64,000 nt of DNA from a virus: the IMG/VR virus record IMGVR_UViG_3300030107_008258, positions 80,419 to 144,418 of that record; one strand, 5' to 3'. Below, piece after piece: positions 50,278 through 58,984 of this stretch. Each line of letters starts with the position of its first letter. Positions within the stretch are counted from its first letter, which is position 1. The notes beneath the pieces were generated by a model. The model saw only the letters and a list, made by a program, of their open reading frames with translations. It ran no database searches and had not been told where the DNA came from. The translations under genes and the position numbers were made by a program.

Positions 50278-50571
50278 TCAGTCATGCGTAATCCTCAAAT
50301 CATTGTCGGCAATCGAATCCTCGTAAAAGGAAACCTCAACTACTCGGTGAATGTCACCAGCCAGCACCTTGTTTCCGTCAATGTCTTTCTCTAACACCAC
50401 GCTGTTGTGGTACTTGTCAATCATCTCTTGCTCTGTTGTACCAACCGGATAAGTGCAGCTTGACACTCGGTTGACACGGGCCAAGAAGTGGTTGCCGGTA
50501 TAGGTTGGGTTCTTCTCCACCTTAAAGGTGGCGTTTAAGAATGAATGGTAGAATGTTCTCTCGTCTCTCAT
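50278..50571 (-). CDS. Early hypothetical protein (MRDERT...)
   Basis: TTGACA(50605-10)-17-TATTAT then GTTATGAG start. Confidence 0.7.
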   Translation of the reverse strand: MRDERTFYHSFLNATFKVEKNPTYTGNHFLARVNRVSSCTYPVGTTEQEMIDKYHNSVVLEKDIDGNKVLAGDIHRVVEVSFYEDSIADNDLRITHD

Positions 50572-50587
50572 AACTTGGTAAATAATA

Positions 50588-50818
50588 TCAGTTCTTTTCG
50601 CTCTTGTCAAGCCATTCCGTTTCCTCACTCCATTCAATCTCGGTGAGTTTGTTCTGGATGTTGGACAGCTTTTCCTCCATGTCAGAGATGCGTCTCTGGA
50701 GGTACTTGACGTGTTCGTAGTCGTTGCCCCATGACTCGGCGAGAGCTTGGAGGGTTCCACGTACGCTGGCAATCTCTGCCCCTTGTTTGCCTAGATTGGC
50801 TCTTGTTTCATGTCTCAT
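50588..50818 (-). CDS. Early small coiled-coil protein (MRHETR...)
   Basis: TTGACA(50852-57)-17-TACGAT then GTTATGAG. Confidence 0.7.
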   Translation of the reverse strand: MRHETRANLGKQGAEIASVRGTLQALAESWGNDYEHVKYLQRRISDMEEKLSNIQNKLTEIEWSEETEWLDKSEKN

Positions 50819-50861
50819 AACTTGGTAAATCGTATCAGATGAATCGGTGAATGTCAAGTGC

Positions 50862-51023
50862 TTATTCGCACCACTCAACTACTCGGAACCATTCCCCTTG
50901 TACTCGCCTGTTCAATGGCGTGTAGCTCGTCCACTCATCCAAAGGAATCTCCTTGACTGTCTGCACTCCATCAACCCAAGGCCCCTTGACCTTAACCGTC
51001 TTTACTTTCTTCTTATCCCTCAT
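50862..51023 (-). CDS. Early 53-aa protein (MRDKKKVKTV...), absent from the ORF track
   Basis: TTGCAA(51057-62)-17-TAGTAT then GTTATGAG; open to TAA at 50862. Confidence 0.7.
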   Translation of the reverse strand: MRDKKKVKTVKVKGPWVDGVQTVKEIPLDEWTSYTPLNRRVQGEWFRVVEWCE

Positions 51024-51085
51024 AACTGGAAAAATACTATCTTAAATCTCAGATCTTTGCAAGTAAAAAATAAAAAAAAGGTGGC

Positions 51086-51298
51086 CTAGTTGGCCACCAT
51101 GCTTAGGATTCTGTCCCAGCGGAACCGCTTCCACTCTCCGGTTTCGGTACACTTGGCGGTAATGCCAGCGCACTTGTCCTGCTCCGAGTAGTTCGCAAAC
51201 TGCTCCTCAACCTCAACGTTGTAGTTGAATGCCAAGCCCTTGATGTTTTCACGCCCTTGGTGGACGTCCGGTCTGTAGTAAATAAGGAAGTTCCTCAT
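51086..51298 (-). CDS. Small WYL-like domain protein
   Basis: C-terminal A.C..TGEWKRFRWDRILSM resembles the WYL R.FR.DRI motif; own promoter TTGCAA-17-CATACT. Confidence 0.6.
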   Translation of the reverse strand: MRNFLIYYRPDVHQGRENIKGLAFNYNVEVEEQFANYSEQDKCAGITAKCTETGEWKRFRWDRILSMVAN

Positions 51299-51364
51299 AA
51301 CGCAAATAGTATGCCTTAAATCTCAGAAGATTGCAAGCCCTAAATGCAAAAAAAATAAAAAAAA

Positions 51365-51458
51365 TTTTTATAGTGATTCCCTTGTGGTTGGCATAGCCCC
51401 TGCTACCTCCAACTCCAAGCCTTACTACCATTATACCTCAGCCCCGTGCTTGAGTCAA
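51365..51458 (-). ncRNA. Promoter plus putative ~60-nt hairpin sRNA
   Basis: TTGACT(51453-58)-17-TATAAT followed by CTTG/GTTGG/GTAGC...GCTAT/CCAAC/CAAG stem (51381-51419) and a T-rich tract; only an 8-codon ORF downstream of the predicted start. Confidence 0.5.
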
Positions 51459-51507
51459 CTAAAAAAATAACTTTTTTCAAAAAAAAGTTTTTTTAAAAAC
51501 TAATATT

Positions 51508-51586
51508 GTAAGTCGTTGACTATCAAGGACTTACGCCCTCGGCGCCCCCCGCGCAGCGCCTAAGTCGTTGTCAATCAGTGACTTAC
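51508..51586 (+). repeat. Twin-palindrome element, copy 1
   Basis: GTAAGTCGTTGACTATCAAGGACTTAC + 25-bp GC core + CTAAGTCGTTGTCAATCAGTGACTTAC. Confidence 0.95.
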
Positions 51587-51724
51587 GACTTGAAAAATCA
51601 AAAAAAATGCTTTTTTAGGATGGGTTTCCGTGCCAACTCTGCCGAAAAATAAAAATAAAAAAAATGAAAAAAAATGACTTTTATGCTTGCGTTTTTCTGT
51701 GGCTGTGCTATACTGTTTCCAGTT

Positions 51725-51871
51725 ATGAGAGATATGAACAACACAGATAAGGTTGAGCAGGGTTACGAGGAAGTTTGCACCGGATGCGGCGAAACGGTTT
51801 GCTTGTCAAAGGAAGAGCATGGTCAATGGGATCACGGGTTCGATGCGTTTATGTGCTGGGAATGCGAGTAA
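51725..51871 (+). CDS. Early zinc-ribbon microprotein
   Basis: CTGC...CWEC; TTGCGT-16-TATACT + GTTATGAG. Confidence 0.7.
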   Translation: MRDMNNTDKVEQGYEEVCTGCGETVCLSKEEHGQWDHGFDAFMCWECE

Positions 51872-51913
51872 ACGCTTGACTTTCCTTTAAAATCTGATAA
51901 GATAATTCCCGTT

Positions 51914-52147
51914 ATGAGAGATATGAAAACGTACACGTTGTACTGGAAGAATGAGGATACCAACAGGGTGAGCAGCAAAGACTTCACCAATGAATCTGGT
52001 GTTGACCATTCGGCAATGGACAAGGCTTTGGAGTTGGCCCAAGAAGCTGACACCAATATGTGGCCTTGGATACTGGAAGAGGACGGTTGCGAAATCGCCC
52101 ACGGTTGGGGTGGTGATATGTTGGGAGCCTACCGCTTTCAAGGTTAA
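51914..52147 (+). CDS. Early acidic small protein
   Basis: TTGACT-16-TAAGAT + GTTATGAG. Confidence 0.7.
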   Translation: MRDMKTYTLYWKNEDTNRVSSKDFTNESGVDHSAMDKALELAQEADTNMWPWILEEDGCEIAHGWGGDMLGAYRFQG

Positions 52148-52236
52148 AAAAATAATTTTATTGACAAGTGGCTGAATTGGCCTTAGTTTAGAAGAAGAGG
52201 GGGGAAGCAAACCTTCTCCCCATTAACCCAAAATAA

Positions 52237-52806
52237 ATGAAACGGATGAAAAATCCACAAACACAAGATGATTGGGCTGCGACAAGAGCAGCGTTATCCA
52301 TCCTGCCGCAAGAGCAACACGCCGACTACTTGGCGATGCTCAACGACACCAAAACGAGAGCCAAGGGGATTATGGCCAAAGCCGTCACCCTTGAGGTCAA
52401 GCCCGATAAGGCAACCGGCAGCAAGGTTCAGGAAAAGGCCAACAAGGCCAAGTCCTCGACCAAAGCCAAGTCCTCCAGCAAGAGGGCTGCTGTCGTCCAG
52501 AAGAAGGCGAAGGTCAACGGGGCCTTCATTACCTTCCACCAGTACTCAATGCTCCAGACGGTGCGTGAGTTAGTGGCCAACGGCGTTAACGGTGCAGAGG
52601 GGCTATCCTCAAGCGAGATCGCCGAATACCGCGACTGCGGCGAGACGGGGAGCGAGGTCTCCACCGTCCTTGACCGCCTCAAGGCCTACCGCATCATCGA
52701 TTGGCGGCTAGTCGAGGTGAGCAAGAAGCCGGACGAAAGCCAAACTTGGCCAAGCCGGAACTTCCCTAGTTCCACCAAGCGGCGGGAATTCACCCTATTG
52801 GGCTGA
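52237..52806 (+). CDS. Winged-helix DNA-binding protein with Lys/Ala/Ser-rich linker
   Basis: ITFHQYSMLQTV...LSSSEIAE....GSEVSTVLDRLKAYRIIDW MarR/LexA-like wHTH; terminator hairpin 52815-52838. Confidence 0.6.
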   Translation: MKRMKNPQTQDDWAATRAALSILPQEQHADYLAMLNDTKTRAKGIMAKAVTLEVKPDKATGSKVQEKANKAKSSTKAKSSSKRAAVVQKKAKVNGAFITFHQYSMLQTVRELVANGVNGAEGLSSSEIAEYRDCGETGSEVSTVLDRLKAYRIIDWRLVEVSKKPDESQTWPSRNFPSSTKRREFTLLG

Positions 52807-52848
52807 TCACTATACCCCTCCCCCTTTGGGGGGAGGGATTTTGATATC

Positions 52849-53385
52849 ATGGAAATTTATAGCTTCGACGAAGTAGAGGAAGGCCAGAATGCTGTCAAGA
52901 CGGCTATGGCTGAAGCCGGTTGCTTTGGGCCGGAAATGGAGAAACATTGTGCAGGTCAATCGCCAGAGAAGGATTTAATATCCTCGTTTATTCGATGGCG
53001 TAAAAAAATAACAACCATGCGAATGACGGTAACGGTCACGCAGGGACTAGGCAAGTACTTGGCTAACCTACTGAACAATGGGGATACTACCGGCATCCCG
53101 CCCAAGACTAAACCAAACATCAAGAAGGTGAATAAACCAGCTAATTGGCTGCGCCAGATGGAAGTTGAAGGCCTGTACAAACAATTCGGCGCGGATGACG
53201 TTGATGAAGTCATTGAACGCGTATTCAAGGCCTGTAAGGGCGGCGAGGTGGTCGATATCTCGGACGATGGTGAAAACATCGTCGAAACGGATCTCGACGG
53301 CTTAGACGTCAATCTAGACGTATTGGCGAGAAGCGAACAAATCCAAGCGTTCAATGTTCACTTTACCCCCAAGAAAAAAAGTTGA
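52849..53385 (+). CDS. Hypothetical protein
   Basis: 178-aa ORF filling the gap to the next promoter. Confidence 0.55.
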   Translation: MEIYSFDEVEEGQNAVKTAMAEAGCFGPEMEKHCAGQSPEKDLISSFIRWRKKITTMRMTVTVTQGLGKYLANLLNNGDTTGIPPKTKPNIKKVNKPANWLRQMEVEGLYKQFGADDVDEVIERVFKACKGGEVVDISDDGENIVETDLDGLDVNLDVLARSEQIQAFNVHFTPKKKS

Positions 53386-53432
53386 AAATAGTTGTTGACT
53401 TTTCCTGAAATTCTGATATACTAGTTTCCGTT

Positions 53433-53615
53433 ATGAGAGATACGTTTGATAACTTAAGTTGTGAAGAGGTTTTTGAGTTGAACGCGGTTTGTGACCAGTG
53501 GCAGCAAGAGGCCATCAAGGCTCAAGAGGCTGAGCTTGCCGAGCGCAAGCGCAAGGCCGCTGCTGAAATGTTCTGGTTTATCCAAAAACGCCGCCAGCAA
53601 GGGGATTGGTTCTAA
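53433..53615 (+). CDS. Early small protein, CEE-FE family
   Basis: TTGACT-16-TATACT + GTTATGAG; LSCEEVFELNA. Confidence 0.75.
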   Translation: MRDTFDNLSCEEVFELNAVCDQWQQEAIKAQEAELAERKRKAAAEMFWFIQKRRQQGDWF

Positions 53616-53631
53616 TAAAAAAAACCAAGTC

Positions 53632-53710
53632 GTAAGTCGTTGAACATCAATGACTTAGGCGCCCGGCGCCCCGCGCCGAAATCGTAAGTGCTTGATAATC
53701 AGTAACTTAC
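53632..53710 (+). repeat. Twin-palindrome element, copy 2
   Basis: Palindromes at 53632 and 53684. Confidence 0.95.
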
Positions 53711-53858
53711 GCATCCGTTTTTTAAAAAAAGTGATGTTTTAGGATAGGTTTCCGTGCCAACCTGTGCAAATTATTAAAAAAACTTTCTTGAATAAAAATA
53801 AAAAAAATGACTTTTTAGGGTTGACTTTTTCAGAGTTTATGCTATACTGTTTTCCGTT

Positions 53859-53981
53859 ATGAGGGATAAGATAGAAATGGAAGAGGTGTTCACCGAAAAT
53901 TGGGAACAGTTAATCGATGAGATCATGGGCGACATGGACATGGTCTGGAATGAAGAAGCTAAAAAATTCGAAATAAACTGA
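53859..53981 (+). CDS. Early acidic 40-aa protein (MRDKIEMEEVF...), absent from the ORF track
   Basis: TTGACT(53821)-16-TATACT + GTTATGAG. Confidence 0.7.
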   Translation: MRDKIEMEEVFTENWEQLIDEIMGDMDMVWNEEAKKFEIN

Positions 53982-54145
53982 TGACAGACATAGAAAAAAA
54001 GATCCACAAGTTAAATGTGGATATCGTGCTGAACGGCCCGATCACCTGCCTTGACCCGATCAAGGATCATCGCCTGAAGGTTGCCAAGTTCAACATCGCC
54101 AAGCGGGAATTACTCGCAAAAGAATTTCAAAAAAGTGAGATTTAA
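53981..54145 (+). CDS. 54-aa protein (MTDIEKKIHK...), absent from the ORF track
   Basis: TGATG stop/start overlap with the preceding gene. Confidence 0.6.
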   Translation: MTDIEKKIHKLNVDIVLNGPITCLDPIKDHRLKVAKFNIAKRELLAKEFQKSEI

Positions 54146-54187
54146 GGGTTGACCTTGAGCGTAAAGTGTGATTTAATAAACGGAGTT

Positions 54188-54358
54188 ATGAGGGAAACCT
54201 TAAAAGAAAACAAAAAGTTGGTCTGCCAAGAGTGTGGTAGAGAGGACGGAGCCAAGAGCGATTGGGAAGGCTTCATCAGCGTATCGGAGTGGGGCAATGA
54301 GCATGACTTCGGAACGATCTGCGACGAGTGCCAAGAGGATCAAATTGATAGCCTTTAA
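54188..54358 (+). CDS. Early zinc-ribbon microprotein
   Basis: CQEC...CDEC; TTGACC-17-TTTAAT + GTTATGAG. Confidence 0.7.
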   Translation: MRETLKENKKLVCQECGREDGAKSDWEGFISVSEWGNEHDFGTICDECQEDQIDSL

Positions 54359-54403
54359 AAAGGGCTTGACTTTTTCAAAAAATCTGATAGAATAATTTTT
54401 GTT

Positions 54404-54706
54404 ATGAGAGAAACATATAAACACCCCGAAACCGGAGCCGCCATCTACTACGCCCCATGCGTAGACCACGAAGATGATGTTAGTAAAATCTGGCACGACT
54501 TTCGCGATTGCGAAACCAAAACTTATGCAAACCTGAGCATGGATTGGTCGCCTTACAGAGACCCATCAAAGAACGACATCAAGATGTGGTTCGCTCTTGG
54601 TTGCCCTGACCGCCGCACCATAGGAGACGGCAAAACGGTTGGCTCGCTCGATTCTGACAGACTCGTCGAGGCTCTTGGTAAACAACTTTGTATCGGAGGA
54701 TTCTAA
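54404..54706 (+). CDS. Early hypothetical protein
   Basis: TTGACT-16-TAGAAT + GTTATGAG. Confidence 0.7.
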   Translation: MRETYKHPETGAAIYYAPCVDHEDDVSKIWHDFRDCETKTYANLSMDWSPYRDPSKNDIKMWFALGCPDRRTIGDGKTVGSLDSDRLVEALGKQLCIGGF

Positions 54707-54707
54707 T

Positions 54708-55163
54708 ATGAGAAAAATAATAATAACTTTCGCCGCTGCTGCTACTGCTTTAAGCCTTTATGCAAACACACACAAAAATCACACGCTTTCAAGGGAAACC
54801 AAGGTCATCGCAATTACTATACTGGCGGAAGCCAGAGGGGAAGGACACGCAGGAATGTACGCGGTGGGTGCTGTCATTGCTCAACGAGCATTTGAAAGAA
54901 AACAAACGCCCACAGAGGTATGCCTTAAAAAATGGCAATTTAGTTGTTGGAACGGAAAAAAACTCAAAGACCTTGAGCATTTGCTCAAGGGATCGCAAGC
55001 CAAATACGCAATAACAGTTGCGAAAAATGTGAAAACATTAAGCCGCGAATATGTTGGCTATGCTAACCACTACCACGCGACTTGGATGAAGAAAAAGCCT
55101 TACTGGGCAAAAGGTCAAAAGCCTGTTAAGACAATCGGGCAACACGTTTTTTATAAACTTTAA
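54708..55163 (+). CDS. SleB/Hydrolase_2-family cell wall hydrolase with signal peptide
   Basis: ILAEARGEG..GMYAV..VI..R, QFSCWN, ANHYHA, IGQHVFY; GGAGG SD before ATG 54708. Confidence 0.88.
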   Translation: MRKIIITFAAAATALSLYANTHKNHTLSRETKVIAITILAEARGEGHAGMYAVGAVIAQRAFERKQTPTEVCLKKWQFSCWNGKKLKDLEHLLKGSQAKYAITVAKNVKTLSREYVGYANHYHATWMKKKPYWAKGQKPVKTIGQHVFYKL

Positions 55164-55183
55164 TCTTTCATCCTCATAACACA

Positions 55184-55227
55184 GCCCCGTCGAGTTCTCT
55201 CTCTGCTCGGCGGGGCATTTTTCTTTT
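55184..55227 (+). terminator. Terminator after the hydrolase gene
   Basis: GCCCCGTCGAG-11 nt-CTCGGCGGGGC + T tract. Confidence 0.75.
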
Positions 55228-55272
55228 TGTCAAGTGAAAAAGATAAAAAAAAGTTTTTTAAAAAATAAAGTC

Positions 55273-55351
55273 GTAAGTGACTGATATTCAATGACTTACG
55301 GCAGCGGCGCCCTGCGCCCAAATCGTAAGTAACTGATATTCAATGACTTAT
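55273..55351 (+). repeat. Twin-palindrome element, copy 3
   Basis: Palindromes at 55273 and 55325. Confidence 0.95.
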
Positions 55352-55488
55352 GAACTCGTTTTTCTAAAAACTAAGACTTTTAAAAGGGATTCCATGCCAA
55401 GTAGTGTAAAAAATAAAAATAAAAAAAATAAAAAAGTGAGTTTTTTCTGTTGACTTTTCCCGGAAAGTGTGGTTTAATAATTTCTGTT

Positions 55489-55758
55489 ATGAGGGATATG
55501 TTTGATAATATGTACGAGGTTCGGATCGCCAACTCTGGCGATGTTGCTGGTTTCCCGCGTTCTCACGATGGTCTTGAAAAGGCCATCATGTTGGCCTCGC
55601 GTGAGGGTACTGAGGTCACCTTTGATGGTGATGTCGTCTGGCCGGAGGAGGAGCCGGATATGGATGAGTCCATGGACGGGGATCATGAGTCCGCCTTGGC
55701 CAGTGCCGGTTTCGGCACGGATGAGGATTACGGCTGCTACGGTGGCGATGAGTGGTAA
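55489..55758 (+). CDS. Early very acidic protein (SMDGDHESALASAGFGTDEDYG)
   Basis: TTGACT-17-TTTAAT + GTTATGAG. Confidence 0.75.
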   Translation: MRDMFDNMYEVRIANSGDVAGFPRSHDGLEKAIMLASREGTEVTFDGDVVWPEEEPDMDESMDGDHESALASAGFGTDEDYGCYGGDEW

Positions 55759-55814
55759 AAAACTCATTTTTTTTGTTGACTTTTAAATCTGATTGTTTTA
55801 TACTGTTTTTTGTT

Positions 55815-56009
55815 ATGGGAATTATGAAATCACTATTCATGGAACTCTCCTGCGAGGAGGAGTTTGAACTCAACGCGTGGTGCGACGAACGCCGTGAGGC
55901 CGACATCGCCGCGCAGGATCGCGACATGGTCGACGAGGAAATGGCCCGTCAGTCCGACGCGCAACTCGCCGAGGACGCCGCGTTGGATCTGTTGATCGCC
56001 GCCGGTTAA
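55815..56009 (+). CDS. Early small protein, CEE-FE family
   Basis: TTGACT-17-TATACT + GTTATG; LSCEEEFELNA. Confidence 0.75.
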   Translation: MGIMKSLFMELSCEEEFELNAWCDERREADIAAQDRDMVDEEMARQSDAQLAEDAALDLLIAAG

Positions 56010-56079
56010 TCACGAACCGTGCCAACCAACCCCGCCAAGGCGGGGTTTTTTTGTTTTTAGTTTTTTAAAAAGTGAAGTC

Positions 56080-56158
56080 GTAAGTCGTTGGGTAGCAATG
56101 ACTTAAGGGCCGGGCGGGGGGCGCCGACCCCTTAACTTGTTGATTATCAATGACTTAG
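56080..56158 (-). repeat. Twin-palindrome element, copy 4 (core inverted)
   Basis: Palindromes at 56080 and 56132. Confidence 0.95.
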
Positions 56159-56234
56159 GAATACAAAAAATAATTTAAAAAAGTGAGATTTAAAGGTTGA
56201 CATTTTCTGATTCTGTGGTATGCTCATTTCTGTT

Positions 56235-56402
56235 ATGAGAGATAATGTTACTTGTGAAGAGGTGTTCGAGATGGAGTCCGACGCATGGGTCGCTGATGTG
56301 ACCGTCGCCAACGGTTTCGACGATGTCGAGGTCGAGGAGGTCGAGGAGGTTTGCTGGTGCAAGTTTTTCGAGTCGTGCCCTGAATGTTTTGGCAAAAAAT
56401 AA
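56235..56402 (+). CDS. Early small protein, CEE-FE family, with C-terminal CxC/CxxC
   Basis: TTGACA-16-TATGCT + GTTATGAG; VTCEEVFEM. Confidence 0.7.
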   Translation: MRDNVTCEEVFEMESDAWVADVTVANGFDDVEVEEVEEVCWCKFFESCPECFGKK

Positions 56403-56406
56403 AAAC

Positions 56407-56485
56407 GTAAGTCTTTGCGCTGCAGTGACTTAGGGCTCGGGCAGGGGGCGCCGCGTGCGTAAGTGACTGGTAATCAAAGGGTTAC
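56407..56485 (-). repeat. Twin-palindrome element, copy 5 (core inverted)
   Basis: Palindromes at 56407 and 56459. Confidence 0.92.
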
Positions 56486-56656
56486 GCGCATAAAATCTGA
56501 AATTGGAGTAACGTAAGTTTTTCTTTTTCGGCAAGTCTCACATTGCCCCTTCTTCCAAGAGCCGCACCTATCAGTTATTTGAGGCTGACGGTTTTCCTTT
56601 TTAGCTGCTCTTATTTCACGGTTCTGCGCTTTGATTCCGCAAGCATAACAAATCAT
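56474..56656 (-). CDS. Small basic zinc-finger protein
   Basis: CYAC...CETC. Confidence 0.55.
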   Translation of the reverse strand: MICYACGIKAQNREIRAAKKENRQPQITDRCGSWKKGQCETCRKRKTYVTPISDFMRVTL

Positions 56657-56703
56657 TATTTATTAAAATCTTATTTCTTATTTGATTAATTCCAAATCCG
56701 AAT

Positions 56704-56919
56704 CTAGGAGAGTATTTGTCGAATTTGACCTCTGTATTTATTTATCTCCGAAGCTGTCTCGCTATGGGAAGCGATGTTTCGTAAAGTCTCACGCGTTACG
56801 CTTTCGATCCGCCTTCTTAAAGTCTCTTTGACGGACTCCAAACTTTTAGCATCTTTTATTTTGATGCTGCGAGTTTTCTTTTTCTTCTCTGCCTTTTTCT
56901 TTAAATGTTTAGTTTTCAT
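56704..56919 (-). CDS. Small basic protein
   Basis: 71-aa Lys/Arg-rich ORF directly downstream of the large ncRNA. Confidence 0.5.
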   Translation of the reverse strand: MKTKHLKKKAEKKKKTRSIKIKDAKSLESVKETLRRRIESVTRETLRNIASHSETASEINKYRGQIRQILS

Positions 56920-56932
56920 TATTTTAAATTAA

Positions 56933-57730
56933 AAAATGGTGGTTGGATTAATTGTTTACCAACACCTTTTCAGTACCCAGAAAACAATGTTTCTATCTAC
57001 TTACTTCGGACTCCCCCACGGTTTTCCTCTGCCACTAGGCCGCTGTACTTCCCGCAGTTGCTGCGTTATCCCTTTGGGAGGGATTATTCCGCCACACCGA
57101 TCTCTCTCCGTCGAGAGAGAAAATTGATAGGTTGCTGCCGCACCACCAGCAGTAAAACGGGCGCGAGATCATCAAAACACAGAAAAACTCGCAGGGGTAT
57201 TTAACTCCGTCAACCTAAAAGAATCATTTTAAACGGATCACCCACACATTACAAACTATTAACGTCTTGTTGATCTTTTTCGTAAACAATGGTTAGGAGG
57301 CTTCTACTCCCAAGACTGATTTAATAATGCCCTGCTAGATTACTCTAACAAATCTAAAACAATTCAAATTGATCGCTTTTGAGAAACTTCTCATTCTTAA
57401 CCGTTTCAAGTCGAGTTAACGACTGTCATGCTTTCAACGCGTTTATAGCTCAGAAAGACGTGATTAAGTGCATGGCCCAAGTTTTTTGGTGTTATGAGAG
57501 AGAGTCCCTTTGCGGGACAGTCTTTAGACCGCAAAACTCAAAAGCAAATTTTCAAAGAGCATGGTCGCTTTTTACAGGTGCTACCTTAACTAGGGGGCTA
57601 CCCTAGACGCGACCAAAATTGTCAGGGGTTAACTAGCATTGTATTCCTACCCTAGTCTTTTAAGTCTGCCCTGCCAGACTACCTTACCCAAACACATGAA
57701 CGTATAACTTACAAACATTCCCCGAAGGGA
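56933..57730 (-). ncRNA. Large (~800 nt) structured non-coding RNA candidate
   Basis: Promoter TTGCAT(57760-65)-17-TATACT; no minus-strand ORF of 60 aa or more; many hairpins; ends in a T-run. Confidence 0.7.
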
Positions 57731-57742
57731 AAAACCAGTATA

Positions 57743-58006
57743 TCAGCAACGGTCTGGCAATGCAACCTTTTTCTCAACTTTTTTTTGCTGATCTTCAATC
57801 AACTCTCCATCCTCCAAACAAGCATCCCAAGTCTTTTCCCAATCAAAAGAAAAATACTCATCAAATACCTTTGAAGCTATCCGACCCTCCATGCTTTGAG
57901 TCGCTGCTTCTTTCAGCATCGATCTCATAACTTTGAGTCTTTTCCGCATTTCTTCAGTTCCCGCTTTTGTTCGCGGCCTCAACCAATGGTCATCCATTTC
58001 TTTCAT
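57743..58006 (-). CDS. Hypothetical protein
   Basis: 87-aa ORF coupled to 58008-58652. Confidence 0.6.
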   Translation of the reverse strand: MKEMDDHWLRPRTKAGTEEMRKRLKVMRSMLKEAATQSMEGRIASKVFDEYFSFDWEKTWDACLEDGELIEDQQKKVEKKVALPDRC

Positions 58007-58007
58007 A

Positions 58008-58652
58008 CTATAATACCTTTCGGTTTTTTTTATCTTTTAACTTAAATCCCATTTCTTTGAAGGTGTACTTCTTTCCTTTATTCCAAGGCACTCTCTTTGG
58101 CTTTGGCTCTGGAATGTAAAAAATGTTATAGTGCGGCCCTAGTGCTGTCCTATCCCGAAGGACAACCCGCTCCGACTTATAGACCGGCTTCTTGGTTATA
58201 TCCTCCACAAAAGTCTTATACTTATAAGGGTTATAAGTTGCACCCTTAAACTCATCACCTGACTCTGGGATGCATTTGTCGCACCACTCAAACTCTCCAT
58301 CTCCGCAGTCGCAGATGTTATACTTCTCTACCTTACCACGAACTAGACGATGCCGCTCCTTTTGAACGTCTCCGATGTTGTGGCACTTGCCTACGACATA
58401 AGCGTGAACATTCTTCCGCTTATCCCGAAGTACTCGCTGCCGCCCTGCCTCTTGAACGCGAAACTTTGCATCGTACAACTCAACACGGTGAGCATGGCAA
58501 TAAAGTAGACCCGTCTCCGCATCTATGACTGACAAGCAATCAAGATTTAGATTGTAGTAAACTTTCACACGATCCGGTGCAACCTCGATGCCGTCCATCA
58601 TTTTACGCGGCCCTGCCTTCTCCCAGCTAATGAATCCTTTTGGTTCCCTCAT
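58008..58652 (-). CDS. Conserved phage protein (VY.NL...AGRQRVLR.KRKNVHA.V.G...YNPYK family)
   Basis: Recognisable motif set; own promoter TTGACA-17-TATACT + GTTATGAG. Confidence 0.75.
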   Translation of the reverse strand: MREPKGFISWEKAGPRKMMDGIEVAPDRVKVYYNLNLDCLSVIDAETGLLYCHAHRVELYDAKFRVQEAGRQRVLRDKRKNVHAYVVGKCHNIGDVQKERHRLVRGKVEKYNICDCGDGEFEWCDKCIPESGDEFKGATYNPYKYKTFVEDITKKPVYKSERVVLRDRTALGPHYNIFYIPEPKPKRVPWNKGKKYTFKEMGFKLKDKKNRKVL

Positions 58653-58716
58653 AACTTCAAACAGTATAATCTAGTCGGTCTCTAATGTCAACAGTAAAAA
58701 ACATTTTTTTTTAAAT

Positions 58717-58790
58717 TGGACGCGAGGGAGGGAGTCGAACCCTCAATTGTTCTTTTGCAGAGAACCGTCTTGCCGTTTGACCACCCCGCG
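58717..58790 (-). tRNA. tRNA-Cys(GCA)
   Basis: CGCGGGG/CCTCGCG acceptor, GTC/GAC D stem, GTTCT-CTGCAAA-AGAAC anticodon arm, GAGGG-TTCGACT-CCCTC T arm, U73, encoded CCA. Confidence 0.93.
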
Positions 58791-58883
58791 ATTGTAGGAG
58801 CCTTTGCCCTTCTTCGGACGATGCACCCGCTCGCCAGTGTTCCACCTGACTACTGCGCGGGGCTTTTTAGACTTCTCATTCAC
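58743..58883 (-). CDS. ArfA-like 46-aa protein overlapping the tRNA-Cys
   Basis: RVHRPKKGKGSYNR matches the ArfA KKGKGSY.R motif; promoter TTGACA(58916-21)-16-TATTAT with GTT-GTG start at the standard 7-nt distance. Confidence 0.75.
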   Translation of the reverse strand: MNEKSKKPRAVVRWNTGERVHRPKKGKGSYNRGVVKRQDGSLQKNN

Positions 58884-58984
58884 AACGGGGTTAATAATAT
58901 CATATTTTACACATATGTCAATAGTAAAAAACATTTTTTTAGGGGTTGACAAGTACCCCCATTTACCCTATACTCATCTTGGTT

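Follow-up and report, generated by a model that had tools for sequence, protein, structure and literature searches.

An ArfA-Like Reading Frame That Continues Into a tRNA-Cys Gene in a Marine Phage

The DNA analyzed here, referred to as the window, is a stretch of 64,000 nucleotides that forms the last 64 kb of the 144,418-bp IMG/VR record IMGVR_UViG_3300030107_008258, has a G+C content of 38.9% and belongs to a marine phage. On its minus strand, an open reading frame (ORF) of 46 codons plus TGA (58743..58883), whose predicted product is similar to alternative ribosome rescue factor A (ArfA) at the docking end, runs in frame into nucleotide 1 of a 74-nt tRNA-Cys(GCA) gene (58717..58790) and terminates inside it. 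The two share a 48-nt dual-coding overlap (58743..58790), in which tRNA nucleotides 1-48 spell codons 32-46 (RGVVKRQDGSLQKNN) and the stop. Comparison with related phages suggests that the frame inside the tRNA seems to be under selection, and that the 46-residue peptide obtained by reading through the unprocessed precursor is most likely the active and selected product. Taken as a whole, we favor with modest confidence an explanation in which a dual-function early transcript yields this read-through product, while cleavage by ribonuclease P (RNase P) constitutes a competing fate.

A Reading Frame That Ends Inside a tRNA

The ORF starts with GTG at 58883 behind an early sigma-70-type promoter (58894..58921, minus strand), in which the -35 box TTGACA (58921-58916) and the -10 box TATTAT (58899-58894) are separated by a 16-nt spacer that carries TG directly 5' of the -10 box. 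The promoter agrees with the consensus at 11 of 12 positions and is kept, together with its spacing, across 19 unique relatives. The GTG sits 10 nt past the -10 box, which predicts a leader of ~3 nt (GTT). The first 31 codons (58791..58883) are at the same time the 5' leader of the tRNA and end in ...TCC TAC AAT, the piece that would be left stop-less after an RNase P cut. Codon 32 (CGC, Arg) coincides with tRNA nucleotides 1-3, the frame reading GTG...TAC AAT / CGC GGG with the slash at the tRNA boundary, and the stop TGA (58745-58743) corresponds to tRNA nucleotides 46-48, at the boundary between the variable loop and the T stem. On the ORF strand, no promoter-like site was found between the GTG and the tRNA, that is, no sign of the separate internal tRNA promoter that a preliminary description of this locus had allowed for, and the tRNA thus relies on the promoter of the ORF.

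ARAGORN finds one tRNA in the window, the tRNA-Cys(GCA) at 58717-58790 on the minus strand, and with the Rfam tRNA model (RF00005) it reaches 58.7 bits (gathering score 29), the first model position falling on 58790. With its GCA anticodon, C1-G72 pair, U73 discriminator and encoded CCA, the gene is complete by ARAGORN as well as by Rfam covariance scoring. It is the sole tRNA in the 144-kb record, in which no transfer-messenger RNA (tmRNA) was found. ARAGORN, Rfam and the sequence itself thereby bear out in every detail the anatomy that had been described before, namely the ORF, its GTG, the promoter, the tRNA, entry at +1 and the TGA inside the tRNA.

Evidence for Two Functional Genes

Scanning marine metagenome contigs for this tRNA-Cys lineage gathered 50 contigs, 35 of which resemble the window: an ORF carrying the motif runs into the tRNA at +1, and in the same frame. 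Among 19 distinct 93-nt leaders, the 37 variable sites are distributed over codon positions 1, 2 and 3 as 9, 5 and 23, and the ratio of non-synonymous to synonymous polymorphism (pN/pS) is 0.16 for the leader in the ORF frame and 0.09 for the core; the two alternative frames give 1.35 and 2.04. Synonymous divergence among the leaders is ~0.5. The Arg codons alternate between CGC and AGA among relatives. The GTG start is invariant, and a 2-nt indel just 5' of it alters the upstream frame between relatives, hence translation starts at the GTG. Since purifying selection acts in the ORF frame only, the leader of the tRNA is a translated gene; judged by this comparison, the ORF is a genuine, translated gene and its fusion to the tRNA is conserved, and the possibility of an untranslated leader, raised in the preliminary description, finds no support. 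The same description had named relatives that stop before the tRNA, or lack the motif, as evidence against its interpretation; the 35 contigs are fused in frame, and three sister phages carry a free-standing version with its own stop, which is described further below.

It could be argued that the leader ORF is what remains of a gene that was disrupted when the tRNA inserted, now decaying and kept only as promoter and spacer for the tRNA. Some relatives have indeed lost the ORF (L057 and L064, as well as L006/L041 with a short untranslated leader), and in L055 it is frameshifted. However, a pN/pS of 0.16 at this synonymous divergence, the preponderance of third-position changes (23/37) and the invariant start codon are not what a relic would display, and we consider this explanation very improbable. 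Two variants of the fused clade, P0121 and P0122, continue the frame past the usual stop. P0019 and comparable long forms were rejected as variants, because a gene caller had read TGA as Trp in what is otherwise the same ORF.

The tRNA is constrained as well. In an alignment of 11 tRNA variants, fused and unfused, 220 of 220 stem cells are paired, and both-sided changes are found in three pairs (7-64, 27-41, and 49-61, in columns of the 74-nt alignment), one each in the acceptor, anticodon and T stems; the observed covariation score was reached by 0 of 500 shuffles. In the predicted minimum-energy fold of the 170-nt precursor, the tRNA folds independently and does not pair with the leader. This pattern of covariation indicates that the tRNA-Cys is under structural selection and is a functional gene, not a relic.

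Evidence for a Probable 46-Residue Product

Because the Arg codon consists of tRNA nucleotides 1-3, this residue can come only from the unprocessed precursor, as had already been pointed out for the 46-residue form in the preliminary description. An Arg two residues after the motif Tyr (Tyr+2) is present in 208/208 family members outside the fused clade, and in the other family members the tail after the Tyr has a minimum of 5 residues and a median of 12. The RNase P product (31 residues, ending ...GSYN) would be without the invariant Arg and the entire basic tail. ArfA(1-40), the equivalent of this product in Escherichia coli, is reported to be without rescue activity (Chadani 2011a, as cited in PMC8012679).

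A second line of evidence comes from tRNA nucleotide 19 (58772, minus strand), which lies in the D-loop at canonical position 20. It is C in the window, giving the codon CAA, where T would give an in-frame TAA. All 36 fused copies have C (CGG CAA), while T is found in 15/15 unfused copies (CGG TAA, an in-frame stop) and also in other tRNA-Cys genes of related phages. Between the commonest fused and the commonest unfused tRNA, nucleotide 19 is the sole difference; both T-arm variants are present in the fused and unfused classes alike. On a tree of the downstream flank, the label fused or unfused needs three changes, and the ORF-less L057 and L064, which nest among fused relatives, carry T at nucleotide 19. 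As the nucleotide is C with the ORF and T without it, selection seems to see the frame inside the tRNA. The invariance of the Arg, the tail lengths, the inactivity of ArfA(1-40) and the covariation at nucleotide 19 together lead us to read the 46-residue peptide as the selected product.

Relation to ArfA

The core motif of the peptide is K-P-R-A-x-V-x-W-N-T-G-E-R-V-H-R-P-K-K-G-K-G-S-Y-N-R. Against the Pfam family PF03889, the window peptide reaches an E-value of 7e-5 and 22.6 bits, under the gathering cut-off of 25.5, and the match is limited to profile positions 25-39; in a six-frame search of the whole 144-kb record, the ORF is the best PF03889 match (E 4e-5). All 16 members of the first family alignment match PF03889, and three relatives pass the same cut-off, with 27.5 (L095), 27.0 (L115) and 25.5 bits (L119). 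When the family profile is compared with the PDB, six ArfA sequences are the top matches (E 0.016-0.03), and the aligned block sets eRvHrpKKGKGSYkR against QRVEKNKKGKGSYMR. The docking block K-K-G-K-G-S-Y-x-R occupies residues 24-32 and is followed by basic residues, a combination found in the 46-residue form only, and K24, G26, G28, S29, and R32 are invariant among 33 aligned members. The proposal that the ArfA docking motif is present is thus upheld by both the Pfam and the PDB matches, and the peptide appears ArfA-like at its docking end, although by profile score the membership of the window peptide in the ArfA family is borderline.

The Pfam and PDB alignments of the family always begin at profile position 24-27, and extend over positions 18-42 only in the subfamily L128/L130, which is adjacent to tRNA-Lys. 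The N-terminal half of ArfA that contacts release factor 2 (RF2; profile positions 1-24) is unmatched in the window peptide and in the family, in agreement with the earlier remark that the N-terminus does not resemble the RF2-recruiting part, and the N-terminal half of the family has a conserved motif of its own, KPR..V.WNTG.RVH. It has therefore to be considered whether the peptide docks like ArfA, yet plugs or marks the empty mRNA channel without recruiting RF2, as an inhibitor, a competitor of tmRNA and small protein B (SmpB) or a hibernation-like factor. The match to the C-terminal half of the ArfA profile alone, and an N-terminal motif unlike the RF2-contacting segment, would fit such a role. 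On the other hand, L119 and L120 join an ArfA-like DPL(F/Q) segment to an FNTA/KKGKGSY core, which suggests continuity with true ArfA, and relatives show the arfA-type intragenic terminator described below, so that we see a channel plug as possible but rather doubtful.

The family comprises 570 proteins at E <=0.01, which form 172 clusters at 50% identity; its members have 36-60 residues and are mostly found on phage-like contigs. Some relatives have already been named ArfA by NCBI and JGI. No NCBIfam model matches the peptide, PHROGs gives a weak match only, to an unnamed family, and BLAST searches of GenBank phages with the DNA and with the peptide returned no matches, and hence neither a cultured relative nor an annotation.

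Non-stop Design and Recurrence of ArfA-tRNA Neighbors

The arfA mRNA of E. coli is made stop-less by a terminator inside the ORF (PMC8012679), and a non-stop design of this type is seen in some relatives of the window gene. L088 (1501-1668) has an intrinsic terminator inside the ORF, consisting of a 9-bp stem and a T-run at 1606-1628, with the stop at 1666, and the hairpin-coded tail KSGKxPDFF recurs in six protein clusters. In L089 and L095, strong hairpins with U-rich runs behind them are located within the ORF or at its end. The truncated products of L088, L089, and L095 would keep 11-15 residues after the Tyr. Many other family members have plain stops. To judge from their sequence, these intragenic terminators support functional kinship with ArfA.

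Recurrence of the layout was tested with four pattern scans that asked for the motif and a T-loop behind it, an approach that shows existence in several lineages, not enrichment. Besides the window clade, at least one independent fusion of a motif ORF entering a tRNA was found, as the preliminary description had suggested looking for: on the 147-kb viral contig L125 (4346-4558), a 56-codon ArfA-like ORF has its last 12 codons and its stop inside a tRNA-Arg(TCT), which is part of a tRNA cluster. This tRNA begins 8 residues past the motif Tyr, and the RNase P product would therefore keep the Arg and a basic tail. In L126 (64-313) and L127 (950-1096, minus strand), the stop of an ArfA-family ORF lies 4-5 nt before a tRNA-Glu on the same strand, and in L128-L131 it lies 8-24 nt before a tRNA-Lys, likewise on the same strand. 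The PF03889 scores of L126, L128, and L130 (29.9-36.2 bits) are above the cut-off, and that of L127 (24.6) is just under 25.5. L124 was rejected as a chance match of the motif-plus-T-loop scan, with no Arg at Tyr+2 and no ORF context.

These relatives bear directly on the function that the preliminary description had ascribed to the RNase P cut, in which RNase P takes over the part of RNase III or of a terminator inside the gene, the stop-less message is normally tagged via tmRNA, the peptide accumulates only when trans-translation is saturated, and it is the truncated form that works. The cut site falls exactly at a codon boundary, with U at -1, and the tRNA folds apart from the leader in the minimum-energy fold of the precursor, both of which would suit such a model; so would the terminator hairpins inside the ORFs of L088, L089, and L095, as in canonical arfA, and the unrelated second fusion in L125 with its stop inside tRNA-Arg. 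L125 in fact fits the model better than the window does, since its cut leaves the Arg and the basic tail. In the window, however, the product would end one residue past the Tyr, without the Arg that is present in 208/208 relatives and without the basic tail, and the equivalent ArfA(1-40) is reported to be inactive (PMC8012679), whereas the truncated products of L088, L089, L095, and L125 keep 8-15 tail residues. The model also leaves the C/T covariation at nucleotide 19 without explanation, and the free-standing sisters end in normal stops, hence non-stop synthesis is no family-wide rule. As stated, the RNase P product as the working species is not supported, and we think this version unlikely.

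A Proposed Mechanism

In the mechanism that we favor, one early, nearly leaderless transcript would be both the message for the 46-residue peptide and the precursor of tRNA-Cys. On precursor that has not been processed, the ribosome would continue across the first two-thirds of the tRNA, counted from its 5' end, as far as the UGA at the boundary between variable loop and T stem. Cleavage by RNase P at +1 would be the competing and irreversible fate, by which tRNA-Cys is freed and the leader is turned into a stop-less message; the 31-residue product of the latter, which has neither the Arg nor the tail, would receive a tag from tmRNA. RNase P cutting would thus probably end productive translation and limit peptide synthesis. 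By analogy with ArfA, the peptide may act in the empty mRNA channel of stalled ribosomes. Of the earlier interpretation, this retains the ORF, the motif, the fusion at +1, the promoter and the distinct N-terminus, and it departs from it in that the truncated form is not taken as the active product.

Several points weigh against the 46-residue peptide as the selected product of an ArfA-like gene. Tight linkage, recombination and shared ancestry could explain part of the C/T association, for which only two or three independent events are arguable. With a T at nucleotide 19 (TAA), the tail would still number 7 residues, a length that falls in the range of the family, and the requirement for C is not explained by this. 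The GTG start on a leader of ~3 nt is predicted from sequence, and the match to ArfA is restricted to the C-terminal docking part (profile positions 25-44), with the RF2-recruiting half unmatched. Finally, the terminators inside the ORFs of L088, L089, and L095 and the fusion in L125 mean that non-stop synthesis exists in the family.

A broader and more tentative extension would be that tRNA maturation acts as a translational switch, for which ribosomes and RNase P compete, that the ratio of peptide, tRNA-Cys and the stop-less leader, which consumes tmRNA, reports during infection how the translation and RNA-processing machinery of the host is faring, and that the adjacency of ArfA-family genes and tRNAs in unrelated phages (Cys in the window, Arg in L125, Glu and Lys in others) reflects convergent use of RNase P instead of RNase III or terminators; we regard this as speculative and on balance improbable.

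Origin of the Fusion

Related loci were found by using the downstream gene of the Phage_L5_gp82 family as an anchor. In the sister phages L003, L004, and L005, a free-standing gene of ~40 codons occupies the same place, with an ATG 6 nt past the -10 box; it ends in ...GSYNRKK(G/S)KKSS and a stop of its own, which overlaps the -35 box of the next promoter. The tRNA-Cys lies 3 kb away in L003 and L004, and was not seen within the stretch fetched for L005. In phages of the L006 type (L006/L041), the tRNA is found at the site behind a short untranslated leader, and L057 and L064 have the fused-type promoter and GTGAATG plus ~10 nt ahead of the tRNA, as deletion derivatives without the ORF. The simplest history would be that, immediately behind the Tyr-Asn codons, the 3' end of a free-standing ArfA-like gene, which coded for the tail, was exchanged for a mobile tRNA-Cys. 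As a consequence, tRNA nucleotides 1-45 would now encode the invariant Arg together with the complete tail.

Some further arrangements of the same genes were observed. Phages with a free-standing ArfA-like gene often have a tRNA-Cys within the same early region, 1.4-3 kb downstream of that gene (L031:5467-5540, L035:3644-3717 and L003:5706-5780, also L004), and ArfA-like gene and tRNA-Cys travel together even when unfused. In L007 (2600-2936), a different ORF, a homologue of L003:2727-2998, ends with TAG at nucleotides 8-10 of a different tRNA-Cys, so that an ORF end entering a mobile tRNA-Cys is not unique to the ArfA-like gene. The unfused relative L072 (2901-2990) apparently has the tRNA-Cys followed directly by a second tRNA-like sequence on the same strand, as judged by eye.

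Promoters and Neighboring Features

Directly 3' of the tRNA lies the next early promoter (58663..58691, minus strand; TTGACA-17-TATACT), which drives the gene used as synteny anchor for the related loci, a downstream early gene of the Phage_L5_gp82 family encoding 214 aa (58008..58652, minus strand). No G+C-rich terminator was found between the tRNA and this promoter. The pattern GTTATGAG has 21 matches in the window against 1.85 expected, mostly in the early region beyond 50 kb (50567-63774, both strands). The layout of a promoter with a 3-nt leader was examined only at the two promoters adjoining the tRNA, and the very short leader of the ArfA-like ORF would represent a local norm, which fits the excess of GTTATGAG. 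An exact 24-nt repeat, AAAAATGTTTTTTACTRTTGACAT, is present at 58685-58708 and 58915-58938 (minus strand), at the two promoters that flank the ORF-tRNA unit, where 0 are expected; the element combines an A-run with a T-run, overlaps the -35 box and is a candidate UP (upstream promoter) element or weak hairpin. Further along the minus strand, the Rfam manA RNA motif (RF01745) is matched at 56932-57118 with 49.7 bits and an E-value of 4.8e-11, under the gathering score of 55.2, and this manA-like match is located at the 3' end of an ORF-poor, promoter-driven region of ~800 nt.

Distribution and Cellular Relatives

ArfA has been described from gamma-proteobacteria and part of the beta-proteobacteria, and BrfA from the B. 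subtilis group; a 2024 survey found ArfA in 0/211 genomes of the Planctomycetes-Verrucomicrobia-Chlamydiae (PVC) group (PMC11633108). The family of the window peptide occurs in marine phage contigs, in five metagenome-assembled genomes (MAGs) of Verrucomicrobiota and in two of Bacillota, and thus outside the known distribution of ArfA. The genes in the Verrucomicrobiota MAGs (L114:2995-3111, L115:3010-3126, L116, L117, and L118) have 38-39 codons and begin with GTG, with no Shine-Dalgarno sequence to be seen ahead of it; their products end in a conserved ...KETTP, and the normal stop is followed ~13 nt later by a terminator. Of three MAGs searched, two contain RF2 and two contain tmRNA, G001 having both. 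Among 301 Verrucomicrobiota genomes searched, the ArfA-like gene was found in one and not in the other 300, and the phage terminase had no close match in these 301 genomes. The Bacillota proteins (L119:2932-3123 and L120:2944-3135) have 64 residues, with the DPL(F/Q) segment, an FNTATK...KKGKGSYDR core and a long C-terminal extension that is hydrophobic in L120; judging by this composition, they may link canonical ArfA to the phage family.

Comparison With Known Systems

No description of an ArfA-like ORF fused to tRNA-Cys was found in the literature searched; the protein family is already annotated in databases, and it is the layout with the tRNA that is unusual. A reading frame under purifying selection overlaps a functional tRNA on the same strand by 48 nt, and one base of the D-loop goes along with the presence of the ORF; this offers a clean natural case of dual coding, and the layout would also be a natural case of competition between translation and RNase P. 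Moreover, members of the family extend ArfA-like peptides to many marine phages and to a few genomes from outside the proteobacteria, as opposed to the survey, by which ArfA is confined to gamma- and beta-proteobacteria and the B. subtilis group (PMC11633108). Phage-encoded rescue factors, if they prove to be such, would be relevant to the question of how phages withstand the decay of host mRNA or RNA-cutting defenses.

In mitochondrial tRNA punctuation and in MALAT1/mascRNA, the 3' end of the upstream RNA is set when RNase P cuts out a tRNA or tRNA-like element, and reading frames abut or overlap tRNA genes; mitochondrial stops are completed by polyadenylation. For these mitochondrial and MALAT1/mascRNA cases, we know of no evidence of a frame that is read into the tRNA, or of a tRNA that adapts to keep a frame open. 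BrfA of Bacillus and ArfT of Francisella are small release-factor-dependent rescue peptides, and BrfA is likewise made from a non-stop mRNA; neither gave a sequence match in the PDB profile search with the family. The loci L125-L131, which come from independent phage lineages, share with the window an ArfA-family ORF directly 5' of a tRNA on the same strand, but their subfamilies and tRNAs differ.

The short ArfA-type proteins of phages and of a few Verrucomicrobiota and Bacillota MAGs (P0016, P0013, P0029, and P0051; L114-L120) belong to the same family, with 57-88% core identity and the shared motif KPR..V.WNTG.RVH.PKKGKGSY.R; they differ in having their own stops and no overlapping tRNA. 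E. coli ArfA (YhdL; PF03889; PDB 5MDV, 5MGP, 5U4I, 5H5U, and 7OJ0) is likewise a small basic peptide with R-V-x-x-x-K-K-G-K-G-S-Y-x-R, and there the shared block starts the segment that fills the empty mRNA channel. It has 72 encoded and ~55 active residues as compared with the 46 of the window peptide, whose gene is phage-borne. In the window, a functional tRNA forms the structure at the 3' end of the RNA, and the cut would remove the tail, whereas E. coli arfA loses only a dispensable hydrophobic end.
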